Of a stretch of 32,000 bases of DNA, positions 6,464-32,000 are shown in pieces. A program made the translations under genes and the position numbers. How positions within the stretch are numbered: position 1 is the first letter of the stretch; every line of letters begins with the position of its first letter. Below the pieces are notes generated by a model that was not told where the DNA came from, did no database searches, and saw only the letters and a list, made by a program, of their open reading frames with translations. The stretch is from positions 270,001-302,000 of the forward strand of contig CP047921.1 of the NCBI GenBank assembly GCA_010202845.1. The letters run 5' to 3'. Source of the stretch: Candidatus Saccharibacteria bacterium oral taxon 488 (GTDB lineage: Bacteria > Patescibacteriota > Saccharimonadia > Saccharimonadales > Saccharimonadaceae).

Positions 6464-7519
6464 CTAGGCTTCGCTGACCAGAATGTAGGTGGCCTTGGCG
6501 GAGCGTTGGAATTGCGGTTTGGCTTGCAAGTTGAGCAGAATGGTGGTTTCTTTGACTTGACGCTTGTCGAGGACGCGCTTCACGATTTCATCGCGGTGCA
6601 GCGGCTCGCCGGCCTCGCGTAGGACGCTGGCGATGATGTCGGCGACGGTACCGCGAGCGTAGCCCCATGATTCGAGGGCATAAATACCGCGGCCGATCAG
6701 AACGAAGCGCTTGTCTTTGATGAGTTCGTTGTGAATGGCTTGGATGGTGACATCTTTGCGTTTGAAATCGCTGTCCTTGATGGCTTTAGCAATGTCCGAG
6801 AAGTGCATTGGCTGGCCGTTGCTGTCGAGAATGACGAAAATCTTGTCACGAATGGTTTTTGGGTTGACGAGCGGCCACTTGATCAGGCCCCACAAACCGC
6901 GGAGGTGAGCTAGTTTCTTGCTGATTGAGGCGAGCGCGGCAATGTTGGATGGGTGCTCGTAGTTGAGCGTTTTGTGTAGTTCCTCGGCGGTGACTGGCTG
7001 GCCGTGCTGTTTGATGGCTTTGATGATTTCTTCGACTTGCTTCTTGATATTCTTCTCGTCGTTTGGTGTGCCGATGATGGCTGAGTGGTAATAGTCATCG
7101 TTCTCGGTGATAATGTTGATTGATGGATTGAGCTCGGCGATAAAGGCGACATGGGATCGTTCGCTATCGGTGACATCTCGGCCGAGGACGTGCTTGGCGA
7201 GATTATGTAGTGGTGCGGCTCGGCCCATTTCTGACAGGTGTGAAGTGACCATCTTTTCAGCAGCCGAGGCACTTGGTATGCCGCCATCAGCTACCAGTAG
7301 ACGGAGGCGAACGAGGATAGCCTTCTCCAGCTGGCGGACACGCTCACGAGTGATCCCGAGCATGTCGCCGATCTGCTCCAGCGTCTCTTTGCTGCCGTAT
7401 AAACCAAAGCGACGGCTAATAATCTCTTTCTCGCGCTCCTGCGGAATTTGCGCCAAAACATCCTCGGCCGCTTGCCGAAGCTGCTTGTCTGGTGCGCTCT
7501 GTTCTTGTGTGTCGCTCAT
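6464..7519 (-). CDS. DNA-binding protein: N-terminal sigma-70 region-4-like HTH plus repeated winged-helix (HARE-HTH/RpoE-delta-like) modules
   Basis: ISRRFGLYGSKETLEQIGDMLGITRERVRQLEKAILVRLR is a classic sigma-70 region 4 HTH. Downstream segments (MHFSDIAKAIKDS...RFVLIGRGIYALESWGY; LHRDEIVKRVLDKRQ...) look like HARE-HTH-type winged helices. No sigma region 2 was seen. It lies 39 nt upstream of the ATPase gene on the same strand. Confidence 0.7.
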   Translation of the reverse strand: MSDTQEQSAPDKQLRQAAEDVLAQIPQEREKEIISRRFGLYGSKETLEQIGDMLGITRERVRQLEKAILVRLRLLVADGGIPSASAAEKMVTSHLSEMGRAAPLHNLAKHVLGRDVTDSERSHVAFIAELNPSINIITENDDYYHSAIIGTPNDEKNIKKQVEEIIKAIKQHGQPVTAEELHKTLNYEHPSNIAALASISKKLAHLRGLWGLIKWPLVNPKTIRDKIFVILDSNGQPMHFSDIAKAIKDSDFKRKDVTIQAIHNELIKDKRFVLIGRGIYALESWGYARGTVADIIASVLREAGEPLHRDEIVKRVLDKRQVKETTILLNLQAKPQFQRSAKATYILVSEA

Positions 7520-7582
7520 GGCTTTATGTTAAATCCTCTCTGCCTCACCTCAGAAGTTATGTTGATATATGACGATATTGCT

Positions 7583-7610
7583 ATTATACAATAAAATATT
7601 TTCGTGTCAA
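7583..7610 (-). promoter_or_regulatory. Sigma-70-type promoter for the 7519-3746 operon
   Basis: The minus strand reads TTGACA (7610-7605), a 16-nt spacer, then TATAAT (7588-7583). It lies about 60 nt upstream of the ATG at 7519. Confidence 0.6.
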
Positions 7611-7759
7611 GCAAGTCGTATAGTACGCCATAATTATAGCATGTATTTAACAATTTTTGCAATGAAATGGTGTGATAGTTTTTAATTTTGTGAATTATGG
7701 GAATGTGGTCTATACAGCACTAATAAAATGTGGCTTGATTGAGTTATTTTGCGGGTCAA

Positions 7760-10354: not shown

Positions 10355-10420
10355 AACTCTATATTATATCAAATCACCTCGCAACCACAACCGCCGAGGA
10401 TGTTTGGGTGCGAGAGCCTC

Positions 10421-11110
10421 TTATTGCTGTTGGCGTATTTCTTCCTTGACTTGCTTACTGAGTTTGGCGGCACGTATTATATATTGAGCGGCTGCTAGGC
10501 CAGCAACTGGTAAGTATATTTTAGATACTCCGTCACCGAGGCTACGGAGTACCTTTGCTGTTTTCTCGTGGCCAAACGACTCTGCCGAGCCGCTGAGTAT
10601 GTATAATGATGTCGCGGTCGACACGAGGGCGCCACTGATGCGGCCAACCTGTGTTGGTCGGAGCGGTTCGGCCTGGCTGGGGAGTTGGCGGTGCTTTTGT
10701 TCCGCTATGAGCGTGGCTATTGCTTTGGTCGCCTCGAGGCTGGTCATAGATGCAACGACAGTCTTTGAGGCGAGACCATCTTCTACTATCTTTAGGAGTG
10801 CAGTGGCGGCGACCACTTTATCTCTGATGGGGTCAAGCTTGATACCGAGTTTTGATTGCTGATGGAGGCGTCTCGCTAGTGTTCCATCAGCCTTGTCTGA
10901 CAGTTCGCCAATGACCAAGGCAGCGATACCCTTAACGGTGCCGGCGTTTCGGATGCCGTATATGCTGCATAGTCCACCTATCGTAGTAACGATATTGGGT
11001 AGCGTGAGTATGTCGTCTGATACCTCTTGGTCGATAGGGGTGTCTGGATTATGGCACGTTTCAATGGTTGTATTGGGCCTTGATAATTCTCTCCTCATTG
11101 GGACTAGCAT
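10421..11110 (-). CDS. CDP-alcohol phosphatidyltransferase family protein
   Basis: DKADGTLARRLHQQSKLGIKLDPIRDK fits the family signature D-G-x2-A-R-x8-G-x3-D-x3-D exactly, with hydrophobic segments on either side. The start codon is uncertain (M1 or M5). Confidence 0.8.
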   Translation of the reverse strand: MLVPMRRELSRPNTTIETCHNPDTPIDQEVSDDILTLPNIVTTIGGLCSIYGIRNAGTVKGIAALVIGELSDKADGTLARRLHQQSKLGIKLDPIRDKVVAATALLKIVEDGLASKTVVASMTSLEATKAIATLIAEQKHRQLPSQAEPLRPTQVGRISGALVSTATSLYILSGSAESFGHEKTAKVLRSLGDGVSKIYLPVAGLAAAQYIIRAAKLSKQVKEEIRQQQ

Positions 11111-11155: not shown

Positions 11156-12028
11156 CTAGTTAAGCGTCCAGTTATTCGCCCCAAGCGGCTTGATCACGCC
11201 GTTGATCTCTAACATGGTTAGTGCCGTGGCGAAGTCGGCTGGGTTGAGACCGGATTGTTGCTGTAGTTGGTCGCCGTCTCTGAGGCCGGTTCGGAGTAAG
11301 TCGATGATAGTGTTTTCGGCTGGGGTTTCACCGAGGGGGGTGACGGCTTGGTCGGTGGCAGATTGAGTGGTTGACGGGGCGATGACATCGAGGATGTCCG
11401 TGGCAGTGGTGGCGACGAGGGCGCCTTGTTTGAGCAGCGCGTTGCAGCCAGCAGACAGCGGGCTGGTGATGTTGCCCGGCACGGCAAAGACGTCGCGGCC
11501 TTGGGATAAGGCGTGAGCGGCGGTGTTCAGTGTGCCGCTGCGCTCGGCGGCCTCGGTGATGATGACGGCGTCAGCTAGGCCGGAGACCAAGCGGTTGCGC
11601 TCCAAGAAACTCCAGCGATTGACGACTTTACCGTCGCCTTTTTGCCACTCAGAGAGGATAGCGCCGCCGTTTTTTATGATATTCATGGCTAATTTGTAAT
11701 TGGTTTGCGGCGAGATGTCGGGCAGTTCATTAGGGATGACGCCGATGACTGTGCCGCCAGCCTCCAGGGCGGCTTTTTGGGCAATGCCGTCGATGCCGAG
11801 CGCCAGGCCGCTAACGATGATGCAGCCGGCTTTTGCCAGGTCGCTCGCCAGCTGCTCGGTCACTTCCCGGCCGTACGCCGAGGGTTTGCGTGAGCCAACG
11901 ATTGCCACGACCGGTGCACCGCTCGTCGGCAATGTTCCCATGAAACACAAGCTTTTCGGTGGATTGGCAATACTTGCCAACCTCTGGGTAAAATTATGCT
12001 CATCTGGACGGATTCTATTGATTTCCAT
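11156..12028 (-). CDS. dprA: DNA-processing protein DprA (Smf)
   Basis: GSRKPSAYGREVTEQLASDLAKAGCIIVSGLALGIDGIAQKAALEAGGTVIGV is the DprA Rossmann-like core. Start moved to the ATG at 12028 (MEINRIRP), which lies 7 nt downstream of TATCAC, with TTGACA 16 nt further upstream. Confidence 0.9.
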   Translation of the reverse strand: MEINRIRPDEHNFTQRLASIANPPKSLCFMGTLPTSGAPVVAIVGSRKPSAYGREVTEQLASDLAKAGCIIVSGLALGIDGIAQKAALEAGGTVIGVIPNELPDISPQTNYKLAMNIIKNGGAILSEWQKGDGKVVNRWSFLERNRLVSGLADAVIITEAAERSGTLNTAAHALSQGRDVFAVPGNITSPLSAGCNALLKQGALVATTATDILDVIAPSTTQSATDQAVTPLGETPAENTIIDLLRTGLRDGDQLQQQSGLNPADFATALTMLEINGVIKPLGANNWTLN

Positions 12029-12048
12029 GACTTTTGTGATAAAAAGTA

Positions 12049-12077
12049 TTGACATGTTGTCAAATGCTTGCTATAAT
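12049..12077 (+). promoter_or_regulatory. Perfect consensus sigma-70 promoter (TTGACA-17 nt-TATAAT) with no ORF downstream
   Basis: TTGACA at 12049-12054, a 17-nt spacer, and TATAAT at 12072-12077. The -35 is part of the palindrome TTGACATGTTGTCAA, which also supplies the -35 of the divergent dprA promoter. Confidence 0.7.
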
Positions 12078-13593: not shown

Positions 13594-14043
13594 TTAGGCT
13601 TGGCTCGTCGTCTTGGTTGAGCCAGGCTGCGTATCACCAGCTGCCATGCAGGTCTGGCACACTCCTTCGAGTTCAAAGTGGTGGCGCTCGACACGGAAGT
13701 GATGGCGCTGGCCGATCAAGGCGATGAGCCGTTCTAGCTCTGGTGTCTCCAGCGGTTCGGCGTTATGACAGCGTGTGCAGTAGAGGTGGTGATGATGTTT
13801 GATGAATGGCTCGGCGAGCTCATAACGGACTTTCCAGCCGATGTGGATGGTGTTAATGACGTGAAGCTCGTGAAAGGTTTCGAGAATGCGATAGATGCTG
13901 GTGCGGTTAGTGTTCGGGCAACGCTTGGCGATTTCGGCGATGGTCAGTGGTACGTCGATAGATTCGAGTGCCGTAAAGACTTCGCAGCGTGATTTGGTCA
14001 GGCGAAGGTCGGCTTGGCGAAAGATGTCGCGTAAGGTATCCAT
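13594..14043 (-). CDS. Fur-family metalloregulator (Zur-like)
   Basis: Winged-helix segment TKSRCEVFTALESIDVPLTIAEIAKRC...RTSIYRILETF. Metal sites HHHHLYCTRC and CQTC. Start moved to the ATG at 14043 (MDTLRDIF), which lies 6 nt downstream of TACAAT. The longer ORF would overlap the divergent gene. Confidence 0.85.
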   Translation of the reverse strand: MDTLRDIFRQADLRLTKSRCEVFTALESIDVPLTIAEIAKRCPNTNRTSIYRILETFHELHVINTIHIGWKVRYELAEPFIKHHHHLYCTRCHNAEPLETPELERLIALIGQRHHFRVERHHFELEGVCQTCMAAGDTQPGSTKTTSQA

Positions 14044-14051
14044 GTCGCAAT

Positions 14052-14088
14052 TGTAGCACTTATTGCGACAAAATTGCAATAAGCTACA
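14052..14088. promoter_or_regulatory. 37-bp imperfect palindrome (candidate operator) overlapping both divergent promoters
   Basis: TGTAGCacTTATTGCGACAAAATTGCAATAAGCTACA. The outer arms TGTAGC/GCTACA and the inner ATTGCGACA...TTGCAAT are symmetric. It covers the TTGCAA -35 elements of both the fur promoter (minus strand) and the 14111 promoter (plus strand). Confidence 0.55.
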
Positions 14089-14110
14089 CAATACGCCATA
14101 CTGATGAGCT

Positions 14111-14881
14111 ATGAAAGAATGTATTGAGCGAGTGCTGAGCTTGCCGCAGCTCACACCTTCTGAGGAAGTTAATGCGGCGTTTACCGAATTAGTTGATGCG
14201 GTGGTGGCGCACGGTAAAGAGCCACTGCTGCGTGACGAGGATATTCGCCGTCAGGTGCAGCAGCGCTGCGCGGTAGCCGAAGGAGAGTTGGAACGACACT
14301 GGTCGGGGCGCATCACAGAGGCGGATAACCCGTGGGCAGAGTTAGAAGCGTTTCCGTATCATGAGAATTATAAAGAGTTGACGCGGCGTGAGATTGGGCT
14401 GCTGGGACGGACTGGGCTGCAGCTATGTGGTTGTTCGTCGGAAGTGGCGATGATTGGTAGTGGGCCGTTGCCGCTGACGGGATGGTGGCTACATCGGCTA
14501 ACGGGAGCGCGGATTACGCATGTTGATGCGTCGGACGAGGCAATTGAGTTATCGCGCGGCCTTGCCACGGCGCTTGATTGGCCGGGTAAATTTGTGACTG
14601 GTCTGGGTCAGTCGGTGGCGCTGGATGAGGGGCGATATGATGTGATATATGTAGCGGGACTGGCTGGCGAAACGCTGGCGGAAAAGCAAGCGATCGTTGA
14701 TCATGTACGACCAGCACTTACACCAGACGGGCGACTGATCGCGCGCGGGGCGTACGGGGCGCGCACCCTGCTCTATCCAGGATTTGATGCTCACGCTTTT
14801 GAGGGTGTGCGGCTGATGGAGGAATACCATCCGACAGATGGGGTGATTAATTCGGTCTTTGTGTACAAGCAGGCCGCTTAG
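14111..14881 (+). CDS. Nicotianamine-synthase-like (NAS/CntL-like) SAM-dependent aminobutyryl transferase
   Basis: N-terminal LSLPQLTPSEEVNAAFTELVDAV, then VAMIGSGPLPLTGWWL and DVIYVAGLAG. These match the NAS-family patterns (LsPs.evN.lF..LV; GSGPLPlT; DvvflAALvG) as I recall them. Confidence 0.75.
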   Translation: MKECIERVLSLPQLTPSEEVNAAFTELVDAVVAHGKEPLLRDEDIRRQVQQRCAVAEGELERHWSGRITEADNPWAELEAFPYHENYKELTRREIGLLGRTGLQLCGCSSEVAMIGSGPLPLTGWWLHRLTGARITHVDASDEAIELSRGLATALDWPGKFVTGLGQSVALDEGRYDVIYVAGLAGETLAEKQAIVDHVRPALTPDGRLIARGAYGARTLLYPGFDAHAFEGVRLMEEYHPTDGVINSVFVYKQAA

Positions 14882-14902: not shown

Positions 14903-14921
14903 ATTGAGACATTGTCGCAAT
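14903..14921. repeat. Copy of the 19-bp palindrome ATTGCGACA-N-TGTCGCAAT
   Basis: ATTGaGACATTGTCGCAAT, in the 52-nt gap between convergent stops (14881 plus, 14934 minus). Confidence 0.7.
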
Positions 14922-17951: not shown

Positions 17952-17970
17952 ATTGCGACATTGTTGCAAT
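17952..17970. repeat. Copy of the 19-bp palindrome ATTGCGACA-N-TGTCGCAAT
   Basis: ATTGCGACATTGTtGCAAT, in the convergent gap between stops 17911 (+) and 18021 (-). The flanks cTATTGCGACA....TGCAATAAGC closely match the operator copy at 14060-14083. Confidence 0.7.
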
Positions 17971-21676: not shown

Positions 21677-23305
21677 TCACTTCTTGTCAAGAACAACCAA
21701 GTGCTCACTATGCGGCGTGCGCGGGAAAAAGTTGTAGCCGCGGTGATGGACGATGCGGTAGTGCTGCTGGAGCAAGGCGACATCGCGAGCTTGGGTGACG
21801 GGGTTGCAGCTGAGATAGAGGATGCGCGGCGGTAGCTGTTGCAACAATGTCGCAATAACGTCAGGATGTAAGCCAGCGCGCGGCGGATCAACGATGACGA
21901 TTTCCTTGCCTGTAATGTGGTCGAGGGCTTGTTCGCTGGGGGCGAGGACAGCGCGAGCGTCGGTGCGGTCAAGTTCGGTGATGTTGCGCTGCATTTCGCG
22001 GACAGCGTCGGTGTTGATTTCCACCAGCGTGACGTTGCCGCCGCCAATGGTCAGACCAATAGTGCCGACGCCAGCATAGAGGTCGAGGGCTGGCTCGCCC
22101 GTCTCGCAAACATCTTTTTCTTCAGGCCGGCGCGCCGCTAACTGATCTAGCTGGCGCTCTTGGCGCGCCTTTGCCGGAAAGGCAAAGCCTTCAGAAAAAG
22201 AGTTTGACGAGTCGTGCTGCTTGCTTTCTCTATGTTGCCCAGATTTTTTCTGAGATATTACTCGCTGTTGACTATCAATGTCGCCATGTGCCGCCAACTG
22301 AGCCCGGCGCTCTTGGCGCGCCTTATTGTACGGCATCCACTCCTTCATATCGCGCAGCGCCTGCTCGTAAACCGGGATGTTGACTTGGAAAAAGCCTTCG
22401 CAGGCGTAGCGGAATGGTATGCCAAGGATAGCGTCAGTCAAGGTGGTGTTACCGAAAAGCGCCAAGCGCTCGGTGATGCGGCTGGCTGGCGAGCGCGGGT
22501 CGGAATAGATAATTTCCCCGCCCTGAGCTGGTAGCTTGGCGGCTTCAGTAGCGGTAATTATTTCGGGCAAGCGATCTTTAACATACAACTGCCATACGCA
22601 ACTTCCCGATTGATCGCAGCGGACGAGCAAGGTCTTGAGCTGGCGAGCCGCGACGCGTTTATGGCGCAGCAAATTGCGGATCGCCCGCGCCAGGTTATTG
22701 ATTGCAGGGTGCGCCAAGCTCGTGCCATCGATGACAATCTTGCCTTTGCTGCCGCGGCGAAAAAATGCTAAATCAAGCGTATCGCCAGATGATTCTTCAC
22801 GGTCGCTATCCGCGTCTATATCTTGGTTATTATCAGAAAATAATTCGGGACCCGAGACAAGCCCAGATTTTTTCTGAGATACCGCTCGGGATACCACCGA
22901 TTCGCTGTACCAGCTAAATTCAACTTTGTTGCGATAACCATATGCGACATTGTCGCAATAAATGTCAATCGCCGCCGGTAATGTAACATTGTGCAGTGTA
23001 AAGGCGTCGTCGATCAGTTGCCTTTTGTATATCTGCTCTATCTCGAGCGGCATAATTTGCCAGGGGCTGGTCGACAGGTAACTATCTGGATCGCGCGGCT
23101 GGATGCGGTCGGGGCTTGGCAAAATTACCTCCTCGACAATCGCTTCGACGAAGTGCGATTTCTTTTTAGTAATGCGAACAGTGACCGTCTCGCTGGGCAG
23201 TCCGCCCCATACAAAACATTTGCGGCCGTCGGTCAGCGTCCCTAGTGCTTGCCCGCCGCCAACGACCTTCTCCAGTGTCAGCGTCTCAAAACTCTGTCGT
23301 TTCAT
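21677..23305 (-). CDS. RlmD/RumA/TrmA-family (uracil-5) RNA methyltransferase with an N-terminal TRAM domain and two internal insertions
   Basis: TRAM-like N-terminus (LTLEKVVGGGQALGTLTDGRKCFVWGGLPSETVTVRITKKK). Family motifs GYRNKVEFSW, GFFQVN, LDLYAGVGTIGL, IVDPPRAGL and YLSCNPVTQARD. The ATG at 23305 lies 8 nt downstream of TATAAT (23319-23314). Confidence 0.85.
   Translation of the reverse strand: MKRQSFETLTLEKVVGGGQALGTLTDGRKCFVWGGLPSETVTVRITKKKSHFVEAIVEEVILPSPDRIQPRDPDSYLSTSPWQIMPLEIEQIYKRQLIDDAFTLHNVTLPAAIDIYCDNVAYGYRNKVEFSWYSESVVSRAVSQKKSGLVSGPELFSDNNQDIDADSDREESSGDTLDLAFFRRGSKGKIVIDGTSLAHPAINNLARAIRNLLRHKRVAARQLKTLLVRCDQSGSCVWQLYVKDRLPEIITATEAAKLPAQGGEIIYSDPRSPASRITERLALFGNTTLTDAILGIPFRYACEGFFQVNIPVYEQALRDMKEWMPYNKARQERRAQLAAHGDIDSQQRVISQKKSGQHRESKQHDSSNSFSEGFAFPAKARQERQLDQLAARRPEEKDVCETGEPALDLYAGVGTIGLTIGGGNVTLVEINTDAVREMQRNITELDRTDARAVLAPSEQALDHITGKEIVIVDPPRAGLHPDVIATLLQQLPPRILYLSCNPVTQARDVALLQQHYRIVHHRGYNFFPRTPHSEHLVVLDKK
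21838..21856. repeat. Intragenic copy of the 19-bp palindrome
   Basis: gTTGCaACAATGTCGCAAT, inside the methyltransferase CDS (encodes DVIATLLQQ). Confidence 0.6.
22153..22324. repeat. 153-bp in-frame unit bounded by perfect 19-nt direct repeats inside the methyltransferase CDS
   Basis: GGCGCTCTTGGCGCGCCTT occurs at 22153-22171 and 22306-22324, spaced 153 nt (51 codons) apart. At the protein level this gives the duplicated KARQER. Confidence 0.8.
22191..22257 (+). repeat. Copy B (variant) of the palindromic repeat
   Basis: Terminal inverted repeat TCAGAAAAA (22191-22199) / TTTTTCTGA (22245-22253). The 21-mer gcccagattttttctgagata (22237-22257) is identical to 22861-22881. Confidence 0.75.
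22833..22888 (+). repeat. Copy A of the 55-nt palindromic repeat, in frame inside the methyltransferase CDS
   Basis: tcagaaaataattcgggacccgagacaagcccagattttttctgagataccgctcg. It has the inverted repeat TCAGAAAA / TTTTCTGA and an inner CGGGaCCCG palindrome. It matches the reverse complement of 9136-9190 at 48 of 55 positions. Confidence 0.85.
22941..22959. repeat. Intragenic copy of the 19-bp palindrome
   Basis: taTGCGACATTGTCGCAAT, with a perfect 15-bp palindromic core TGCGACATTGTCGCA. It encodes IYCDNVAY, immediately before the conserved GYRNK motif. Confidence 0.65.
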
Positions 23306-23324: not shown

Positions 23325-23798
23325 TTAGAAATTACACTCTGGCACGCCGCCAAACCAGCCGTTCTGCATATTGCGGCCAGTGCGGCAGGTGGTGCCATCT
23401 GAGAGCAGCACCTTTATGGCGTAGCGGGTCGGTACGACGCTGGAAGCGTGGGTCGTGTCAGTGGCTGCGAGATACCAATAATCGCGGCCTTCGTGGTCTT
23501 TCGGCAGCTGCTTGATGTAGCGTGGAATGAGAAGTGCGCCGAGCTCACCACCATTACAAATCTTCATATTAGCGGTGTTATAAATGGTGCAGGCGCTCGT
23601 CGGCCATGGATATTCGCCGTTGTCCGAACGATATTTCTCGATCGCCTCTTTGAGCATTGAAATATTTGACTTGGTTTCGTTGTCGCGAGCGGTGTTGTAG
23701 GCATTGCGCCAGACGAGGCCGCCCAAGGTAGCGAGGATCGCGATAACCACGATAATGATGATAACCTCAACGATAGTAAAGCCATACTGCTTATGCAT
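23325..23798 (-). CDS. Type IV pilin-like protein (prepilin with an N-terminal methylation motif)
   Basis: MHKQYG/FTIVEVIIIIVVIAILATL is a class III signal peptide (G-F-T-x-x-E). Start set at 23798, 6 nt downstream of TACAAT. The longer ORF-track version (to 23963) would run antisense through tRNA-Gln. Confidence 0.8.
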   Translation of the reverse strand: MHKQYGFTIVEVIIIIVVIAILATLGGLVWRNAYNTARDNETKSNISMLKEAIEKYRSDNGEYPWPTSACTIYNTANMKICNGGELGALLIPRYIKQLPKDHEGRDYWYLAATDTTHASSVVPTRYAIKVLLSDGTTCRTGRNMQNGWFGGVPECNF

Positions 23799-23877
23799 AT
23801 GACGATTGTAGCGCGTTTTGAGCCCGATCGCAAGGCTGGTAATTGCGTAATTGTTATGATACACTAATCCTTGGTAT

Positions 23878-23952
23878 TGGGCCGTCGCCAAGTGGTAAGG
23901 CACCAGGTTTTGGTCCTGGCATTCGGGGGTTCGAATCCCTCCGGCCCAGCCA
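23878..23952 (+). tRNA. tRNA-Gln (anticodon UUG), CCA encoded
   Basis: Hand-folded cloverleaf. Acceptor stem UGGGCCG/CGGCCCA (U1-A72, as in bacterial tRNA-Gln). D arm GCCAAGUGGUAAGGC. Anticodon stem CCAGG/CCUGG with loop UUUUGGU. T arm GGGGGUUCGAAUCCCUC. Discriminator G followed by CCA. Confidence 0.9.
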
Positions 23953-24040
23953 AGCAAAGACACGTAATTATTCTAAATCTCCTCCGGCTTCCGGTTCAAT
24001 CGACGCCGTGCATTATTACGCCGGCTACCACGGGTCGTTC

Positions 24041-24442
24041 CTATATATAAAACTGATCTATATTGGCCGACAGTGTCGAGTCAAGCTCAACCTGCCCCAG
24101 CTCATCGGCCCCAATATACCGCAGCTCGCTGACATCTGTCGTGGTTGTGGGTGGTGACACGGGGCGAACTTGATAGGCGATGATAAGCACCGGGGTGTTG
24201 AACTTTTTGCTCCATGTCGGGATGATGATTGGCGCTGCGCTTGCAATTTCTATCTCAGCGCCCAGCTCTTCTCGGCACTCACGCCGCAAGGCCTCGGCTA
24301 TGCCCTCGCCGTGTTCCAGCCCGCCGCCGGGTAAATCCCATGTATCGCTCCTCTCGCGGACGAATAGTAACTTTCCGTCCTCATAGATCAGTCCCTTGAC
24401 TGACACGCGATAGGCGGCTCGGATATGTTTGAGCTCAGGCAT
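24041..24442 (-). CDS. Nudix hydrolase
   Basis: Nudix box GGGLEHGEGIAEALRRECREELG. The ATG at 24442 lies 6 nt after AGGAGGA and overlaps the upstream ATPase stop by 8 nt (ATGCCTGA). Confidence 0.85.
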   Translation of the reverse strand: MPELKHIRAAYRVSVKGLIYEDGKLLFVRERSDTWDLPGGGLEHGEGIAEALRRECREELGAEIEIASAAPIIIPTWSKKFNTPVLIIAYQVRPVSPPTTTTDVSELRYIGADELGQVELDSTLSANIDQFYI

Positions 24443-26945
24443 GGTCATTCCTCCTGCTTCGCCATTTGTGTATCTCGCAGGTGGTGATCGGGATAATGAA
24501 TGAGGCGAGGCCGATGAGTGCGCCGTGCCAGAAGTTGATCGGCGTGATGTGGAGGATTGTGCCAAGCGGGCCGAAGAAGACGAGTAGCTGTAACATGACC
24601 GACAGGCCGATGCCAGCGTAAAAACTGGCGTTCATAACCTTGAGGCGAGTGAAGATTGACTCACTGTCAGAGCGGGCGTTAAAGGCGTTGGCCCACTGGC
24701 TGACCACCAGCGAGATAAAGGCCAGTGTTTGCGCGTAGTCGTGGCCATAATGCTTCTCGAAAAAGATATAGACCGCCAGCGCCATGACTGACATGGTGGC
24801 GGCGACGATGACCATCCGCCAGATCATTTGACGGCTGAGAATCGGTGCGTCGGGGCGTTCCGGCGGACGGTTCATGGCCTGCTTTTCGCCTGGCTCCAGG
24901 CCAAGCGGAATGACCATCGAGGTATCGGTCACCAGATTGACCCAGAGGATTTGCACTGGCTCCAGCGGCGTCTTGATGCCGATGAGCAGCGCGCCGAGCA
25001 TGGTGATCAGCTCGCCGGTGTTAGTCGACAGTAGATAAAACAGCATGCGGCGAATGTTGGCGATGATGGTGCGGCCCTCGCGCATGGCGTCGATGATGGT
25101 CTTGAAATTATCGTTGAGCAGGATAATATCGCCAGCGTCTTTGGCGATGTGCGAGCCCGACCCCATGGCCACGCCGACATGGGCGTTGGTCAGTGCCGGT
25201 ACGTCGTTGACGCCGTCGCCGGTCATGGCGGTGATGTGGTGCTTTTTGAGAATGGTCAGTAGGCGGTATTTTTGCTCGGGGATGACGCGAGAGAAGACCT
25301 TGGTTTTGGTGACGATGGCGTCCAGCTGATCATCGGACAGCTTGGTCATATCACGGCAGTCAAACACCTCATCGCGGCTCTCGACCATGCCAAGCTCTCG
25401 GCCAATCTGATAGGCCGTCTCGAAGTGATCGCCAGTGATCATCCGTACCGACACGCCCGCTTTCAGAGCAGCGCGGATGGCCCGCGGCGCCTCTGGTCGC
25501 AGCACGTCAGCCACGGCCACGAAGCCAGCAAGTGTCAGGCGCTGCTTGCCCAGTTGATCAAAGCTATCAATTGCCTCGTCCAGTTCGCCCGTCGCCAGCC
25601 CAATTACTCGGTAGCCGCGGGCGGTCATCTCATCAAGCATTTGCTGGGCGCGCTTTTTGGTGCGGGCCGACACGCGACAGGCCGCCAGGATGGCTTCGGG
25701 CGCACCCTTGACGTACAAGCGGAACTGCCGGCCGTGATGCCAGATGGCGGCGGACATGGCGTGGGCTTGACTGAATGGCAGGTCGCGAACTGGTGCGTGG
25801 CGCGGGCTGGCGCTCTGCTTGCGGGCGTATTCATTGAGGGCGATATCCAGCGGATCGTGGCTCTTGGCGTGAGCGCGGTTGACCACCAGCCCGATGATGC
25901 GGTCGATGTTCTCTGTCGCCTCGTCCGGCGTCCAAGTTTGCTGAACGGTCAGCTTGTTCTTGGTCAGCGTGCCCGTCTTGTCGGTGGCGATGGTGGTGAT
26001 GACGCCGATGGTCTCGATGGCGCGCATCTGATGTACTAGCGCCTTTTTAGCGGCCATCCGCCGCATTCCTAAGACTAACACCACGGAAATCGCAATCGGC
26101 AAGCTCTCCGGCACGGCACTTACCGCTAGGGCCATGACGAAGCGCAGGCTCTCCAGCACATCAATGCCGCGCAGCAAACTCAGCCCAAAGGCAACGAGGG
26201 CGATGGCCGAGACGGCGGCGATGACTTTGGTGATGAGGGTGTCGATTTTTCGCTGGACTGGGCTTTGGGTTGATTCACGCTTGGAGAGCATGGCGAGATT
26301 GCCGAACTCGGTCTGATTGCCTGTGGCGACGACCACGCCGGTGCCGGTGCCGCTGACGACGAATGAGCCTTGAAACAGCATGTTGGTTTGCTCGTACATT
26401 TCTTTGGTGCCGGTGAGGGCGTCGGTTTGTTTGGAGATTGGCAGTGATTCGCCGGTCAGTTGCGCCTCGTCCACCCGCAAGTTGGCGCTACGAATGAGGC
26501 GGATGTCGGCGGGAACTTTCTCGCCCTCAGCCAGCGAGACGACGTCGCCCGGAACTAGCTGGCTGGCGTCGATGCGCGTGGTACGATTGACTCGGTGGAC
26601 GTCGACTTTTTGGGCGTCGTGACGGGACAGGCTGCGTAGCACACGGTCAGTTGAGAAGCGCTGAATGTAGAAAATAACGGCCGAGATGGCGGCGATGACA
26701 AAGATGATGATGGCGTCAATGGCCTCGCCGTGCCAGAGGCTGATGATGGCGGCGATGAGCAGGACGAGCATAAAAATGTCGAGGAATGGCTCGAGAATGA
26801 TGCGCCAGAGCGGTTCGGATTGGATTTTGATGATGTTGAGGCCATAGCGTTTTTGGCGGCGCTGGACTTCGGCCGCGCTCAGGCCGCCATCCGAGGAACT
26901 AAGTCGCCGCAGCGCCTCGTCGCTTGATGATTGATAAAAATGCAT
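24435..26945 (-). CDS. Cation-transporting P-type ATPase (P2-type, Ca2+/Mg2+-like)
   Basis: Motifs TGES, DKTGTLT, MITGDH and TGDGVNDVPAL, with about 10 TM segments. Start moved to the ATG at 26945 (MHFYQSSSDEALRRL), 6 nt downstream of TATAAT (26957-26952). Confidence 0.9.
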   Translation of the reverse strand: MHFYQSSSDEALRRLSSSDGGLSAAEVQRRQKRYGLNIIKIQSEPLWRIILEPFLDIFMLVLLIAAIISLWHGEAIDAIIIFVIAAISAVIFYIQRFSTDRVLRSLSRHDAQKVDVHRVNRTTRIDASQLVPGDVVSLAEGEKVPADIRLIRSANLRVDEAQLTGESLPISKQTDALTGTKEMYEQTNMLFQGSFVVSGTGTGVVVATGNQTEFGNLAMLSKRESTQSPVQRKIDTLITKVIAAVSAIALVAFGLSLLRGIDVLESLRFVMALAVSAVPESLPIAISVVLVLGMRRMAAKKALVHQMRAIETIGVITTIATDKTGTLTKNKLTVQQTWTPDEATENIDRIIGLVVNRAHAKSHDPLDIALNEYARKQSASPRHAPVRDLPFSQAHAMSAAIWHHGRQFRLYVKGAPEAILAACRVSARTKKRAQQMLDEMTARGYRVIGLATGELDEAIDSFDQLGKQRLTLAGFVAVADVLRPEAPRAIRAALKAGVSVRMITGDHFETAYQIGRELGMVESRDEVFDCRDMTKLSDDQLDAIVTKTKVFSRVIPEQKYRLLTILKKHHITAMTGDGVNDVPALTNAHVGVAMGSGSHIAKDAGDIILLNDNFKTIIDAMREGRTIIANIRRMLFYLLSTNTGELITMLGALLIGIKTPLEPVQILWVNLVTDTSMVIPLGLEPGEKQAMNRPPERPDAPILSRQMIWRMVIVAATMSVMALAVYIFFEKHYGHDYAQTLAFISLVVSQWANAFNARSDSESIFTRLKVMNASFYAGIGLSVMLQLLVFFGPLGTILHITPINFWHGALIGLASFIIPITTCEIHKWRSRRNDHA

Positions 26946-27077
26946 AAGGTTATTATAGCGTGAAGTGCTGTTTGGGGGAAATGGTAGCAAGCGGCTTGGG
27001 GTATAGCTTGAAATGGTGGGTAATCATCGTACCTAGTTATAGCTGAGGTCGCTATTCTGCAACAGTTAACTACAGGC

Positions 27078-27112
27078 AAAAAGGTGCGCCTCCGGCTTCT
27101 GCCTCGCGCACC
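27078..27112 (-). terminator. Intrinsic terminator; probably the original terminator of the ABC-transporter operon
   Basis: The minus strand reads GGTGCGC, a 16-nt loop, GCGCACC, then TTTTT. It lies about 95 nt downstream of the remnant stop codon at 27208. Confidence 0.65.
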
Positions 27113-27207
27113 TCTTGCTTGAGATGGGGGTTTTATGATTCTATCATCGTCGGTCGACCCGGTCGCTCCACGTACCGTAAGTGACGTGGGCTGCACCAGG
27201 CCTGACG

Positions 27208-27285
27208 CTATGCCCGTAGCTTCTTATCCTTCAGCTTCAACACCACATCGGCCTGCTTAGCCAGCTGTTTGCTGTGGGTGACGAC
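27208..27285 (-). pseudogene. Orphan duplicate of the last 25 codons plus stop of the ABC-transporter ATPase gene
   Basis: It encodes VVTHSKQLAKQADVVLKLKDKKLRA*, versus VVTHSKQLAKQADVVLKLKDKKLKA* at 29310-29387. The upstream 62 nt (27224-27285 vs 29326-29387) differ at 3 positions, all synonymous. There is no upstream coding continuation. Confidence 0.75.
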
Positions 27286-27302
27286 TCTATTACTTATAAT
27301 TA

Positions 27303-29204
27303 TCAATGCGTTGAATCTCCATCTTTATCTGCGATTAAATCTATGATTTTACGAATCTCCCTTGCTCTGTCGTCATCGCTGTTTAGAAAATGATCCATCT
27401 CATTTTCACAAAAATCAATTACATGATCAATTCTTTTTTCCTTTCCAGTATACTGTTCGATGGCTCCTTTCTTTAGATAAAACTCATAAGATGGATATTT
27501 CGATTCTATTTTCTCATCTAGGTCAGGGTGCTCGTTTCTATATGCAATTATCTGCTCGTCTGTTTTTACTGGCGGTAGGCTCTTCTTTTGACTTCTGTAA
27601 AAGCCTCTATAGAAATCCGTTTTTGTAGTATCTAAATCCTTAATAAAATAGACTTTTAGTCCAAAAGATTCAAAAAATGATTTAAATGAGAACATGCTCC
27701 TCTCGCCATTCACACCGTATACAGTAATACATTGACTGGCTTCTTGATGCAGTATCTTTATAGCAGCCCTAAAGAAATACTCATCATCTTGACCTTCAAC
27801 CAGCAATACTCTATCTAGAAATAGCACTCGAGCTGCCCAAGTATTGTTTAGGATTTCTATCAACTTTTTTTGATCTTCCCTAATATCGGGAGTACGCACC
27901 ACGGAATTACGCTCTTCATTTAGCGAGAATCGTTTTATGTATCTTATCGTGTTATCGTTTATGAAACCTTCGGAATGCGTTACAAGAATGCACTGAATTT
28001 CTTGTTCTTTTGCTAAATCTTCAAGAATTTTTAGATATTTAGATTGGAACTGATAGTGTAAATGAATCTCTGGCTCGTCAATAATAATAAGACCACCTTT
28101 TACGTCATCTCGACCATACGCTTCAAAGATTAAGTGTATAATCGATTTTTGTCCAGCGCTAAGACTGTTTATGTCACCCAGCTCTCGGTCATTTTTTATA
28201 TCACGGAATTTAAACTCGTACGACCATCTTCGTATACTTACTGGTTTTACAGATAGCTGTAAATTTAATATTCTAAGCTTTTCGTTTATCTTTTTGATTA
28301 TTGGAGAATTATTGATTGTAGCTGTGGCATCATTAATATTTTTACCCTCTTTTACTCGCTTAAAGTGATCTTCACCGAGCTTTAATTTTATGAAATCAAA
28401 GATAGCAGGCATGCCTGAGGAGTGCTCGTTAATACTATGGGGGATTAGCCTATTTTTTACATTCTGAAATACATCACCCGAAGGACCATCGCCATTATAT
28501 AAGTGTATCTGAGAGTTATCATTGCCGTAGTCACGGAAAGCTGATAGCATAGAAAAAGTATTTTCAAGAGGTGCTATGTGGTCGGTGTTATCTTCATTGT
28601 ATACTGTTATAGCCTCATTAATTGCGTGGTAATATTCTAAATAGAATTTTATATAATCCGGCACTGGATCACGATAGTGGCTCTTATACGTATTATCTTC
28701 GTCGTATTTGGCTTGTTTAAATGTAATATCTATTTCTATATCCATATCACTATCTAGCGCACAAAACTCAGGCATTGGTATAATTGAGTAATTTTCAAGA
28801 GTCTTTTTTATGTGGCTATAGTTATCTACAATATGATCTATATTAGCCCTATCAATATTATCAAGCTTAATTGATACTCTTACTCTCTGCTGTGCTTCTT
28901 CTGAACTCCAATTAGGTTGGAGCCTAAGACCTAATGTTCTATTGGAGTAATTATCATCAATTTGAAGCATGTTCTTTCTATCTGTATAATATGAGCGATG
29001 ACTGCTGTAGCTATTTGTTATGCGCTTAAATAAAGCTCTCGTAAAGACAAGATTCATAGCCTCTAAAACCGTTGACTTGCCAGATCCGTTTTCTCCAATA
29101 ATGATATTAAGATCTGGGTCAAATTCAATCTTAAAGGCGTTGTTTATGTCCTCCTCATATTTAAAGCTAAGGATATTTGATAATTGCAAATAATTAACTC
29201 TCAT
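27303..29204 (-). CDS. Fused ABC/SMC-like ATPase + Toprim nuclease-like protein (OLD family / fused PARIS AriA-AriB-like)
   Basis: N-terminal LQLSNILSFKY...IIIGENGSGKSTVLEAM (Walker A). LSAGQKS signature, LIIIDEPEIHLH (Walker B/D-loop) and ILVTHS (H-loop). The C-terminal VLLVEGQDDEYFF and FIKDLD fit the Toprim Glu and DxD motifs. TATAAT lies 10 nt upstream of the ATG. Confidence 0.75.
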   Translation of the reverse strand: MRVNYLQLSNILSFKYEEDINNAFKIEFDPDLNIIIGENGSGKSTVLEAMNLVFTRALFKRITNSYSSHRSYYTDRKNMLQIDDNYSNRTLGLRLQPNWSSEEAQQRVRVSIKLDNIDRANIDHIVDNYSHIKKTLENYSIIPMPEFCALDSDMDIEIDITFKQAKYDEDNTYKSHYRDPVPDYIKFYLEYYHAINEAITVYNEDNTDHIAPLENTFSMLSAFRDYGNDNSQIHLYNGDGPSGDVFQNVKNRLIPHSINEHSSGMPAIFDFIKLKLGEDHFKRVKEGKNINDATATINNSPIIKKINEKLRILNLQLSVKPVSIRRWSYEFKFRDIKNDRELGDINSLSAGQKSIIHLIFEAYGRDDVKGGLIIIDEPEIHLHYQFQSKYLKILEDLAKEQEIQCILVTHSEGFINDNTIRYIKRFSLNEERNSVVRTPDIREDQKKLIEILNNTWAARVLFLDRVLLVEGQDDEYFFRAAIKILHQEASQCITVYGVNGERSMFSFKSFFESFGLKVYFIKDLDTTKTDFYRGFYRSQKKSLPPVKTDEQIIAYRNEHPDLDEKIESKYPSYEFYLKKGAIEQYTGKEKRIDHVIDFCENEMDHFLNSDDDRAREIRKIIDLIADKDGDSTH

Positions 29205-29252
29205 GATGCTAATTATTATACACTTATCAGCTTTATTTATGGGTTTGGAACT

Positions 29253-29280
29253 ATAAAAATATAGCTCTTTCGAGCTATAT
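29253..29280 (-). terminator. Intrinsic terminator carried by the cassette, directly after the current ABC ATPase stop
   Basis: The minus strand reads ATATAGCTC-GAAA-GAGCTATAT (perfect 9-bp stem, GAAA tetraloop) followed by TTTTT. Confidence 0.7.
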
Positions 29281-29309
29281 TTAAAACGTGTATTTTTTGG
29301 AGACTATTT

Positions 29310-29939
29310 TTACGCTTTCAGTTTTTTATCCTTCAGCTTCAACACCACATCCGCCTGCTTAGCCAGCTGCTTGCTGTGAGTGACGACGATGACGCATTTG
29401 TCATTTTCATGGGCGGCCTGGCGCAGGATATCGATGATGTCAGCAGCGGTAGTTTCGTCCAGGTTGCCAGTCGGCTCGTCTGCCAAGACGATCGGCGCGG
29501 AGGACACCAGCGCTCGCCCGATCGCCACACGCTGTTGCTGACCGCCAGACAGTTTCATAACATTGCGGTGAATGTGATCGTCGTCCAGACCCATGGTGTG
29601 CAATGTTTCGTTGGTGGCTTTAGGATTAACTAATTTCAAGTTTTCTAGCGGCGTCAAGTAGTCAATCAGGTTATAATTCTGAAACACCAGCGAGATATTG
29701 TGTTTACGATGGTGCGAATAACCCTGCTCGGCGATATCCTCGTCGTTGAACAAAATCTGCCCGCCAGTTGGCGTGTCCAATCCCGCTAGTAGCCCGAGCA
29801 GTGTCGACTTGCCGGCGCCAGAACTACCAACGATGGCGTAGAACTTGCCCTTTTCAAATTGATAATTGATGCCGTTGAGCACATTGCTGGTGCCATCAGC
29901 GTATGAGTAAATGATATCGCGTAACGTAAGTATTGACAT
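29310..29939 (-). CDS. ABC transporter ATP-binding protein (MacB/LolD-type)
   Basis: GSSGAGKSTLL (Walker A), LSGGQQQRVAIGRAL (signature), VLADEPTGNLD (Walker B) and VVTHS. TAGGAG lies 4 nt upstream of the ATG. Confidence 0.9.
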   Translation of the reverse strand: MSILTLRDIIYSYADGTSNVLNGINYQFEKGKFYAIVGSSGAGKSTLLGLLAGLDTPTGGQILFNDEDIAEQGYSHHRKHNISLVFQNYNLIDYLTPLENLKLVNPKATNETLHTMGLDDDHIHRNVMKLSGGQQQRVAIGRALVSSAPIVLADEPTGNLDETTAADIIDILRQAAHENDKCVIVVTHSKQLAKQADVVLKLKDKKLKA

Positions 29940-29947
29940 AATAACTC

Positions 29948-31189
29948 CTAACTTAATTTTGCTAAAATTTGCTTTGGTGATTGGCGCATAATCGGCGCGG
30001 TGGCAGCGATGGCTGACAGCAGAACGACCATGTAGCCGAAGGTGAAAGCCTGTAGATAAGTTGCTATTGGCGCGGCTTGCACCACAATCTTTTCTACGCG
30101 CTGGCTTTGGTCGGTTTGCGCCGTCAGGGCAGTAGAAATCTGCGACGAGGCGACCGAACCGATAGCGAGCGCGAACACCGAGCTAACTAGAGCGGTGATC
30201 GCCAACTCTGCCAAGAACTGCCCGATAATCTGCCGCTTCGACGTGCCGATAGACAGCAAGATGCCAATTTCATGCAAGCGGCCGCGCACCCAGAACACCA
30301 GCACCAGTGACAAAACCGCCAGCCCTGCGGCGGCTGCACCGATGGTGGCAATCGTCAAGATATTTTGAATGCCAGCGATATTTTGGAGAACTCCAGCGAA
30401 CACGGCCCCGTTGTCAGTCAGGCTGAATTTCTGCCAATCAATGTTTGGCAAGTTTTTGACGCGGTCTGTCAGCGACTTCAGCTGGTGCGGATTTTCGGCG
30501 AAATACGTCGCTCGCGTCAACTGCTGGCTGCCCGCTAGCTGCTGCGCCACGGCTAGATTGGTGATGAGATGATTCTCCGCCATGTCGGACTGCAAGACCG
30601 CTGGCTTTTCGCCTTTGCCGCTGAAGATACCAGCGACAGTCACCGTCACCCGCCGGCCGTCTTTGGTGATGTCCAGCTTGTCGCCTGTCTTGATACCGTT
30701 TTTCTCGGCAAACGCTTTGTGGATCAGCGCCGCGTTTTGATCGCGCTTGGTCAAGTGCTTGCCCTGCTCTAGTTGGTAAAATTTACCAGTGAACTCGCCG
30801 AGCAGATCGCTCTGTGTCGCGCCCGTCACCTTCGCCTCGCCAGCCACGTTAGAGTCCAGCTGCACGCCGCTGCCTGCCACGTCAATCAATTGCTTGCTTG
30901 GCAGTCCCGCAGTAGTTTCTGCCTGGAAATTGTGCGCTTTGACTTTGTCCAGGCGCTGCACCCGCTGCGCGATATCCATCGGCACCTCGCCCGACGGTTG
31001 CTTGTTAGCGATGCTAAAGCCAGCACGGATATTCCGCTCGACCGATTGCTTCAGCTGCGCCATCGTCTGCTGCACCGTCAGCGTGCCGATCAGCAGCGTG
31101 AAAATCAGCGTCATGATCAGGGCGATGGTCAGGCTGCGACGCCGCCGCCGCGCCACAGCCGTCCAGGCTCGTTTGATAATCGTCATCAT
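29948..31189 (-). CDS. ABC transporter permease, FtsX/MacB-type
   Basis: N-terminal TM helix after RRRRRS, a large extracytoplasmic domain, and a C-terminal FtsX-type 3-TM bundle (EIGILLSIGTSKRQIIGQFLAE). Confidence 0.85.
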   Translation of the reverse strand: MMTIIKRAWTAVARRRRRSLTIALIMTLIFTLLIGTLTVQQTMAQLKQSVERNIRAGFSIANKQPSGEVPMDIAQRVQRLDKVKAHNFQAETTAGLPSKQLIDVAGSGVQLDSNVAGEAKVTGATQSDLLGEFTGKFYQLEQGKHLTKRDQNAALIHKAFAEKNGIKTGDKLDITKDGRRVTVTVAGIFSGKGEKPAVLQSDMAENHLITNLAVAQQLAGSQQLTRATYFAENPHQLKSLTDRVKNLPNIDWQKFSLTDNGAVFAGVLQNIAGIQNILTIATIGAAAAGLAVLSLVLVFWVRGRLHEIGILLSIGTSKRQIIGQFLAELAITALVSSVFALAIGSVASSQISTALTAQTDQSQRVEKIVVQAAPIATYLQAFTFGYMVVLLSAIAATAPIMRQSPKQILAKLS

Positions 31190-31195
31190 TTGCCC

Positions 31196-32000
31196 CTAGT
31201 CCACTTCAGTTAGTAATTCTTTTGGCGTCGACTGGGTGATAGGCCGCGAAGCCAGCAGCACCGCAATGATAATCACCGCTAGCCCAGCGCCCCACACCGC
31301 CAGTAGATCCGTCGGCTGCACACCGACCGTCACCTTGTCCAGCGTACGCGATGACGTCACCGAATCAGCGTCAGCACCAAGCGACGCACCGTTGAGGGAA
31401 CTGCCAGCTTGACGTGTGGCATTCTGCACCGCCTGCGACACCACGTGATCGCCCATTTGTTGCGCAATCAGGCCTGCGGTAAAGTACGACGCACCGAAGC
31501 TCAGCACTGCGATCATCACCAGCTCGGCGATGTATTGCAGCACAATCTTTGATTGCGGCACGCCCGTCGCCAAGAGTACGCCCGCTTCGCGCTTGCGCTC
31601 GTTCATCCACAAGTACAGCACCATGCCGATTACCACAACACTGACCAGCGCCGTCGCCCACAACATACCGTCGATCAAGCCGTACACGCCATTGACTGCA
31701 CCAGTCACGCCAGCCAGTTCCTGACTATTCTTATTCAATTGATACTTTTGCCAATTGACCGGCAATTTATTCGCCCGCGCCATTACCTCATCCAACTGTT
31801 TGGTGCCCTTGGTAAAGAACGTAGCGTCCTGGTAAATCTCATTTTGCGCCGTATAGGCATTCAGCTGGCGGGTTGTCGTGAGGTCAGTCAAGAACAAATT
31901 CTCGAACAGCTCCACCTGATACGTCGCCTGCTTTGGGTTTTTGCCGTTAAATATACCGACGATTTCCACTTCCACCTCGTCCTTGGATGGATGCTCGTTG
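31196..32000 (-). CDS. ABC transporter permease, FtsX/MacB-type (partial; continues beyond the right edge)
   Basis: The frame stays open upstream of the ORF-track GTG at 31975 (NEHPSKDEVEVEIVGIFNGK...). FtsX motif EAGVLLATGVPQSKIVLQYIAE. Confidence 0.8.
   Translation of the reverse strand, partial: NEHPSKDEVEVEIVGIFNGKNPKQATYQVELFENLFLTDLTTTRQLNAYTAQNEIYQDATFFTKGTKQLDEVMARANKLPVNWQKYQLNKNSQELAGVTGAVNGVYGLIDGMLWATALVSVVVIGMVLYLWMNERKREAGVLLATGVPQSKIVLQYIAELVMIAVLSFGASYFTAGLIAQQMGDHVVSQAVQNATRQAGSSLNGASLGADADSVTSSRTLDKVTVGVQPTDLLAVWGAGLAVIIIAVLLASRPITQSTPKELLTEVD

Follow-up and report, generated by a model that had tools for sequence, protein, structure and literature searches.

An OLD-family gene cassette bracketed by a duplicated ABC transporter gene end at a variable locus of oral Saccharibacteria

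The 3' ends of genes are the target of many integrative elements, which restore the reading frame; likewise, the cis-mobilizable derivatives of streptococcal integrative and conjugative element (ICE) families are characterized by direct repeats of a gene 3' end, a restored gene end and the lack of an integrase. Campbell-type insertion-duplication is the basis of insertion-duplication mutagenesis in competent Gram-positive bacteria, and homology-facilitated illegitimate recombination (HFIR) usually deletes recipient DNA rather than duplicating it. The latter process has been defined for natural transformation (PMC3240628). The minimal mobile elements (MMEs) of Neisseria (Saunders & Snyder 2002; Snyder et al. 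2007) are described in PMC3787668 as a variable region between conserved genes that has no mobility genes and undergoes homologous exchange in a transformable host. Here we report on a locus of Candidatus Saccharibacteria bacterium oral taxon 488 (CP047921.1, positions 270,001 to 302,000; this whole stretch of 32 kb is referred to as the window), in which a cassette with a single OLD-family gene lies between two copies of the 3' end of an ABC-transporter ATPase gene. Comparison with relatives shows that the cassette is a true insertion that duplicated the gene end, and that a gene of OLD type can be present, absent or swapped at this single hotspot, with signs of recent homologous exchange and no recombinase seen. 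Saccharibacteria are ultra-small episymbionts with genomes of <1 Mb in which the gain and loss of immunity genes are poorly understood, and the locus provides a case at the level of the population.

The ABC-transporter ATPase gene (209 aa, 29310-29939; open reading frame (ORF) with a Pfam ABC_tran match at 4.6e-34) is the final gene of an FtsX-FtsX-ABC operon, with an FtsX permease gene (29948-31189, Pfam) just upstream, and it is still intact after the insertion; coordinates are those of the window, and the features of the locus lie on its minus strand unless stated otherwise. The conserved right flank is a P-type cation ATPase gene (24435-26990, Pfam). Loci without the cassette were traced via close homologues of this P-type ATPase to their contigs, and in the metagenome contigs L089 and L092, as well as in L094 (Nanosynbacter lyticus CP124549.1), the FtsX-FtsX-ABC operon is directly followed, approx. 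225 nt on, by the P-type ATPase gene. L091 and L093 have the same ABC-to-ATPase adjacency and their contigs end upstream. In BLAST comparisons, the window aligns to L089, L092 and L094 in two collinear blocks that overlap by exactly 68 nt; for L089, window positions 32000-29320 correspond to 3086-5766 and positions 27285-22234 to 5699-10744, the 68 nt at L089 5699-5766 being used twice. The window is the empty arrangement plus 2,034 nt plus a duplication of 68 nt, that is, a true insertion. The inserted DNA proper, as delimited by the two-block alignment to these three loci and by the composition profile, occupies 27286-29319 and has 33-39% G+C. A first-pass annotation of the window, made from the letters alone, had proposed an insertion with duplication of the end of the target gene and had called for relatives with an empty site, in which the native terminator comes straight after the ABC gene; such relatives exist, N. 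lyticus among them, with the P-type ATPase gene beyond the terminator, so that both an empty site and the compositional shift described below were found. A second kind of empty site, in L169-L174, has a 221-aa ABC allele with a longer tail that is convergent with a 347-aa gene. More distant relatives have greA and a two-component system in front of the P-type ATPase gene, and therefore the ABC-to-ATPase adjacency is lineage-specific.

The two copies of the gene end, 27218-27285 and 29320-29387, form a direct repeat of 68 nt with 93% identity and a spacing of 2,102 nt, or of 78 nt if a diverged tail is counted. In the repeat search, the other direct repeats of the window had at most 45 nt and 60-89% identity, this pair being by far the longest and best, and no inverted repeats were detected at the ends of the cassette at the settings used. 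The left copy (29320-29387) is attached to the gene, and together with 29310-29319 (CTG AAA GCG TAA) makes up the last 26 codons of the ABC gene. The orphan copy (27208-27285) comprises the last 25 codons and the stop, with the 68-nt core at 27218-27285 and a native tail, CTACGGGCATAG, that ends at 27208. Both copies encode VVTHSKQLAKQADVVLKLKDKKL in gene direction. Their first 62 nt show three differences (ACT/ACC, AAG/AAA and GCG/GCC), all synonymous and in third codon positions; past these there are two further synonymous AAA/AAG changes, and the last 10 nt have diverged, with CTG AAA GCG TAA in the gene versus CTA CGG GCA TAG in the orphan and a single K/R change. Codon-wise reading agrees with the three synonymous differences reported in the first-pass annotation, and the 78-nt duplication claimed there is recovered as the 68-nt repeat with its diverged tail. 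The length of 68 nt much exceeds that of any target-site duplication known to us; for this and for the lack of inverted repeats, readings as an integron cassette or a transposon were set aside.

The origin of each copy is indicated by the DNA that follows it. The tail of the attached copy, ...CTGAAAGCGTAA, and the AT-rich DNA after it are common to other OLD-bearing loci (L081, L085), while the tail of the orphan is of the same type as that of the empty-site alleles L089 and L094. That the attached copy arrived with the cassette is supported by its tail and by the hairpin behind it, which are as in all other OLD-bearing loci. Since the attached copy is a genuine ABC 3' end of the OLD-linked allele type and the orphan that of an allele of the empty type, the form with two repeats must be a recombinant of two genome types. 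A comparison of the empty site with the junction that bears the orphan and with the most frequent junction of another type shows no more than a shared GT microhomology at the right joint, and the recipient DNA was duplicated, not lost.

In 400-nt windows, G+C is 0.325-0.39 over 27201-29400 versus 0.53-0.64 over 24001-27200 and 30001-31800, as had been anticipated for the interval between the copies. Just after the ABC stop codon there is a hairpin at 29257-29282 with an 11-bp stem, a GAAA loop and a T run (-14.5 kcal/mol, z -5.6), conserved in L081 and L085, that would act as a cassette-borne terminator of the ABC operon; it had been placed at 29253-29280, and the coordinates are mended here. 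The G+C-rich native terminator hairpin at 27078-27112 (-26.5 kcal/mol, z -3.2, with TTTTT after it), now located 3' of the orphan, lies in the block that is collinear with the empty-site loci, at the position given previously. Between the two lies a single ORF of the OLD family (633 aa, 27303-29204), in agreement with the one-gene cassette first described, and the 17-nt right end of the cassette (27286-27302; TAATTATAAGTAATAGA in gene direction) abuts the orphan repeat. A TATAAT hexamer read by eye at 29216-29221, 11 nt 5' of the OLD start codon, is a possible -10 box of this gene, which would mean a very short leader; no clear -35 hexamer accompanies it and a promoter scan gave no full two-hexamer promoter there. 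The OLD cassette probably has its own promoter. Separately, 29183-29220, which spans the OLD start codon and the putative -10 box, matches the AT-rich positions 1300-1337 over 38 nt at 76%; the match probably reflects promoter-like sequence of low complexity, as opposed to a true repeat.

The distribution of the OLD gene was studied with 778 relatives in a protein collection, of which the best 120 have 61-100% identity, and its context was obtained for eight loci by exact look-up and for 69 metagenome loci. Of these loci, 68 extend far enough upstream to be informative, and in 60 of them an OLD homologue lies directly 3' of the same ABC gene and starts 106-169 nt past the ABC end. Across approx. 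60 loci the ABC protein is 95-98% identical versus 43-97% for the OLD protein, and in seven related loci that were profiled the OLD gene has approx. 30-40% G+C versus 50-60% in the adjoining ABC operon. Therefore, the cassette is not a recent arrival that is peculiar to this genome: oral Nanosynbacter-like genomes most commonly have an OLD gene directly after this ABC gene, mostly without the second repeat. The DNA beyond the OLD stop codon varies, and it may contain an overlapping NUDIX gene, a gene resembling vanZ, an AT-rich stretch of greater length that carries a glycosyltransferase gene, or an MmeI-type gene after a truncated OLD gene. In the last case (L081-L084), the OLD protein is 97% identical to that of the window over residues 1-482, is truncated at 502 aa and has no Toprim domain; the island (e.g., L081 5001-10215, 24-34% G+C) comprises the truncated OLD gene, a 976-aa MmeI-family restriction-modification gene and a 229-aa gene, and represents an alternative occupant, of larger size, of the site downstream of the ABC gene. 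Thus, the site exists empty (L089-L094 and L169-L174), with OLD and orphan (the window, L124, L160, L176 and L152), with OLD and other DNA, or with a truncated OLD and an MmeI-type gene.

The 60 of 68 adjacencies and the varied downstream DNA make the ABC gene end the fixed left edge of a variable island whose usual first occupant is OLD, and the comparison of these loci argues that the 3' end of the ABC gene is a population-wide hotspot in oral Nanosynbacter-type Saccharibacteria. A functional link between OLD and the ABC transporter was considered and rejected; given that a conserved terminator hairpin separates the two genes and that an empty form exists, their adjacency is better explained by position. 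Eight OLD homologues from lower-G+C Saccharibacteria (58-65% aa identity) are found elsewhere, between hydrolase and ASCH/GNAT genes, with no flanking repeats around them, and no OLD relative was found in the IMG/VR viral contigs; the suggestion that the cassette would recur beside other gene ends has therefore no counterpart in these loci, nor was a phage or plasmid carrier found. Another variable spot lies a few kb away from the OLD site: in N. lyticus (L094 8756-12315), the NUDIX gene that stands between the genes for the P-type ATPase and the pilin is replaced by two genes, one for a KAP-family NTPase (746 aa) and one for a protein of 430 aa.

The junction between the cassette and the orphan, TAAGTAATAGA|GTCGTCAC, was found in L124, L152, L160 and L176 besides the window when 1-2 substitutions were allowed. 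Both copies of the repeat are present in a single contig in L124 (ENA metagenome) and in L176 (Logan SRR24136746), which are independent assemblies. This rules out an assembly artefact, in which reads of two strains would have been mis-joined; a host-associated organism with many co-occurring strains calls for such caution in general, and even so the probability of a mis-join is negligible with the two-copy arrangement in L124 and L176 and the orphan junction in L152 and L160. In L124, L160 and L176 the orphan is followed by the P-type ATPase gene. In L152, the OLD end and the orphan are followed by the convergent 347-aa gene instead; this contig is collinear with L169, one of the empty loci of the second kind, at 91% over 4,982 nt beginning exactly at GTCGTCAC. 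As a separate observation, the orphan-to-ATPase gap of L124 (2738-3508) is approx. 770 nt versus approx. 220 nt in the window, and the DNA just past the orphan stop differs too, which points to a further change in this locus.

The recurrence of this junction bears on the possibility that the arrangement goes back to one old illegitimate rearrangement, homology-facilitated or by end-joining, that was inherited vertically and left an immobile cassette with the repeat as an inert scar. A single event would predict a junction that is identical wherever it is present, as observed, and the absence of the second repeat from most OLD loci is consistent with it; likewise, the homology of the cassette ends between the orphan-bearing and the commonest other type stops 1-3 nt from the orphan, with only GT shared. 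Nevertheless, the same junction stands beside two right flanks, each with its own empty-site counterpart, and hence one illegitimate, vertically inherited event is inadequate. Furthermore, strains whose P-type ATPases are approx. 97% identical in amino acids to that of the window include both empty (L089-L093) and occupied (L160, L176) forms, and the orphan and the DNA around it show the traces of exchange given below, namely a zero-difference tract within diverged flanks and an orphan that has not decayed. With this evidence on its two sides, an inert scar is an unlikely explanation.

The clearest of these traces is in L176, which is identical to the window over approx. 2.7 kb (26600-29285), the last differences being at 29286 and within the 26500-26599 bin. 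The identical tract takes in the cassette, the orphan, the terminator and the first approx. 400 nt of the ATPase gene, and it is flanked by DNA that diverges by approx. 10% on the ABC side and approx. 5% in the rest of the ATPase side; it looks like a recent recombination tract. Its left breakpoint is in cassette-specific DNA, and therefore the event would have swapped one OLD allele for another, with no fixed repeat point. The OLD alleles are mosaic as well: identity to the window, taken over 100-nt segments, is 90-99% in places that vary from locus to locus and 30-60% in the remainder. Almost all variants of the orphans are shared with functional ABC alleles (13 of 13 in the window, 16 of 16 in L124 and 11 of 12 in L160); they fall mostly in third codon positions and include no indels, a pattern that speaks for ongoing exchange with functional alleles and not for neutral decay.

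The same locus could be read as the product of site-specific integration. The 68 nt would then be an attachment (att) site within the end of the ABC gene, and the cassette would be a non-autonomous element, similar to the cis-mobilizable elements (CIMEs), whose integration and excision depend on a recombinase of the tyrosine or serine type supplied by another part of the genome or by a helper element. A targeted gene 3' end with the reading frame restored, flanking 68-nt direct repeats, presence/absence polymorphism with precise empty sites, and a junction whose position agrees to the single nucleotide among five assemblies and in both downstream contexts would all follow from it. In contrast, the supposed incoming site (attP), which was also part of the first-pass annotation, proves to be the true and ordinary 3' end of the ABC gene in a relative, its alleles varying over the whole of the 68 nt, most OLD loci have a single copy of it, and the L176 breakpoint falls outside the repeat. 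A Pfam scan found an integrase or recombinase domain in none of the 25 long ORFs of the window, as the first-pass annotation had stated for both cassette and window, and no phage-integrase family is entered beside the site in those gene tables that give Pfam families. The absence of OLD relatives from the IMG/VR viral contigs points in the same direction, and so does that of the junction expected of a circle or tandem (right end ...TAAGTAATAGA/AATAGA, the 68-nt core and left end GAAAGCGTAA/GAAAGCGTAAAAATAG) among the locus contigs, which is a weak negative. Taken together, site-specific integration seems unlikely.

A founding insertion-duplication, followed by RecA-type exchange after natural transformation, is the explanation that we favour and is considered slightly more probable than not; we infer the route (transformation plus RecA) and the order of events from the comparisons given above. 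In the founding event, an 'ABC-OLD-...' genome and an empty 'ABC-terminator-P-type ATPase' genome would have been joined, such that the donor ABC end and OLD precede the last 78 nt of the recipient's gene. The resulting topology of target homology, insert and target homology is that of a Campbell-like insertion-duplication, which would need no dedicated recombinase, and homology would be needed only in the ABC gene end. This could have occurred by a single crossover with a circle, by a linear fragment both ends of which pair with the same target, or by a one-ended homologous event with an illegitimate join at the other end. Later spread, the mosaics and the identical tract would be the result of ordinary double crossovers in the long conserved flanks; a differing right flank would be acquired by a crossover in the 68-nt orphan, serving as a portable right-hand homology arm, which would account for the second context. 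If the two repeats recombined with each other, the cassette would be lost and the empty site restored exactly, which would explain the precise empty sites. Of the Campbell-type integration proposed earlier, the insertion with target duplication and without an integrase stands, and the circular form was not found among the locus contigs; likewise, 'non-autonomous defence-gene carrier' is apt in the sense that the cassette would be moved by the host's own recombination, and in no other.

Natural transformation, which had been put forward on account of nearby dprA and pilin genes, is plausible. The DprA gene (11156-12055) and a type IV pilin gene (23325-23963) are both located in the window, and natural transformation with linear DNA and homology arms down to 221 bp has been shown in Saccharibacteria, including N. 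lyticus (PMC10633639).

Several points weigh against a founding insertion-duplication with later exchange. The second context is known from one contig (L152), without an upstream ABC gene. All relatives are 8-12% off the window in the ABC operon and the donor lineage is indistinguishable from that of the recipient; when 23 loci that represent all arrangement types were compared along this operon, sliding identity was uniformly 82-97% and no locus was consistently the nearest. The same product would result from a circle, from insertion-duplication of linear DNA or from an illegitimate join at one end; with only the GT microhomology and no donor or recipient signal in the ABC operon, any of the three may have been the founding route. 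Moreover, 68 nt is a short arm, the tested arms in the group being of at least 221 bp, the analysis covers 32 kb of an 853-kb genome and a trans-acting recombinase could be encoded elsewhere, and the anti-phage role of the OLD protein is presumed from its family.

A stronger proposal is that the duplicated ABC end is the working part of a recombinase-free mobile unit that could insert at the ABC gene of any relative via competence and RecA and be precisely removed. With the same 68 nt on both sides of the cassette, a fragment or an excised circle would insert whatever lies downstream. We advance this possibility tentatively and regard it as rather doubtful. It is nevertheless testable, since an empty site is present in N. 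lyticus CP124549.1 and strains of N. lyticus have been transformed. If true, a short duplicated gene end would move a cargo gene without a mobility enzyme, possibly a general route by which bacteria of the candidate phyla radiation (CPR) without conventional mobile elements could trade immunity genes; if only the hotspot and the scar hold, the locus would be a tidy case of defence-gene flux by transformation, with no new principle.

The cargo protein has an N-terminal ABC-type ATPase (Pfam AAA_15 1.2e-26, AAA_21 2.7e-18 and SMC_N 7.5e-14) and, C-terminally, a Toprim domain (PF20469 OLD-like_TOPRIM, 6.1e-10, residues 461-525). The Walker A, signature and Walker B motifs (GENGSGKS, LSAGQKS and IIIDEPEIHLH) are intact in the translation, and the acidic Toprim motifs LLVEGQDDE and KDLD are present. 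Its best solved relative is the OLD nuclease 6P74 (1.6e-13, residues 350-511 only). The PADLOC models AriA, Old, GajA and fused AriAB each match parts of the protein; the best is AriA (7.7e-29), which covers the ATPase part only (residues 24-415), and the fused AriAB model gives a partial match (7.1e-22, residues 343-528), the Toprim domain being the OLD-like_TOPRIM of Pfam and not DUF4435. The PARIS system pairs the AriA ATPase with AriB, a Toprim nuclease of the DUF4435 type, in separate genes or as a fusion. No helicase, retron or AriB partner gene accompanies the OLD gene in the cassette, which is a single ORF with the 78-nt orphan, the terminator and the P-type ATPase gene downstream. Among the other OLD classes, class 2 has a UvrD/PcrA-like helicase immediately downstream, class 3 a retron and class 4 a separate AriB (PMC7049728, PMC10568477). 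Class 1 includes P2 Old and the Thermus scotoductus OLD (PMC7049728). A class 1 member defends Vibrio cholerae (PMC12392090). By its domains and motifs, the cargo is a predicted divergent, new member of the OLD family in a class-1-like arrangement.

Other features of the window were recorded in passing. A tRNA-Gln(TTG) gene on the plus strand (23878-23952) overlaps the 5' end of the longest pilin ORF (minus strand, 23325-23963), and the true start of the pilin probably lies further downstream than that of the ORF. The window further encodes a VirD4-like coupling protein and topoisomerase I. Several patches of 36-39% G+C at 1000-3800, among them the genes for a protein with an Excalibur domain (1842-2762) and for a DUF4190 protein (2817-3500), adjoin the VirD4/TrwB-like coupling-protein gene (3746-6424) and may be another acquired or variable region tied to type IV secretion genes. 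A 19-nt palindrome, ATTGCGACATTGTCGCAAT, is present with at most 3 mismatches at 14062-14080, 14903-14921, 17952-17970, 21838-21856 and 22941-22959, five sites versus 0.02 by chance; three of them lie among genes for a Fur-family regulator (13594-14154), nicotianamine synthase, DUF1980/ArsP-type permeases and TerC/DUF475, with a CobW GTPase gene slightly beyond, and the other two in the region of a tRNA methyltransferase ORF. The palindrome looks like the operator of a putative Zur/Fur-type metal regulon. Finally, a repeat of 56 nt in inverted orientation (88% identity) is found at 9136-9191, in the topoisomerase I ORF, and at 22833-22888, in the ORF of a tRNA (U5) methyltransferase, with a third, partial copy of 28 nt at 22237-22264; its core is CTCAGAAAAAATCTGGG, it has extra BLAST matches in L089-L091 and L094, and it may be a small repeat element.

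With regard to the known systems, the cargo resembles the class 1 OLD nucleases as a stand-alone gene with no helicase, retron or AriB partner, and it differs from them in that its similarity to the solved or modelled OLD proteins is low and regional. The locus shares with the 3'-end integrative elements and CIMEs the direct repeats of a gene end, the restored gene end and the lack of an integrase; however, it is a single-gene cassette with no relaxase or other element gene and no separate att-like conservation in the repeat. Its topology is the same as that of insertion-duplication, and the ABC gene remains intact since a complete 3' end came with the incoming copy; here, in contrast, the event was natural, the homology is of only 68-78 nt, and the product has since spread and recombined in the population. 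HFIR would likewise anchor one end by homology, in the ABC operon, and join the other without it, which would explain a gene fragment at the junction. It may describe the founding step; nevertheless, the locus shows a duplication and a 2-nt microhomology, and HFIR alone fails to explain the same junction in two contexts.

In behaviour, the locus is closest to the Neisseria MMEs: empty and occupied forms occur, an identical tract lies within diverged flanks, and competence is documented in the group. Two differences stand out. The first is that a 68-78-nt copy of the 3' end of the left flank travels with the cassette and recurs in a second context; to our knowledge, MMEs have not been described as bracketed by a duplicated gene end. 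The second is the host, a CPR episymbiont with a genome of <1 Mb. The hotspot, the scar and the OLD gene are each unsurprising; of note is the population evidence for transformation-type exchange of an immunity gene in Saccharibacteria. The locus would be a defence cassette of one gene that lacks a recombinase and has, as a possibly portable arm, a duplicated gene end, in a CPR bacterium.

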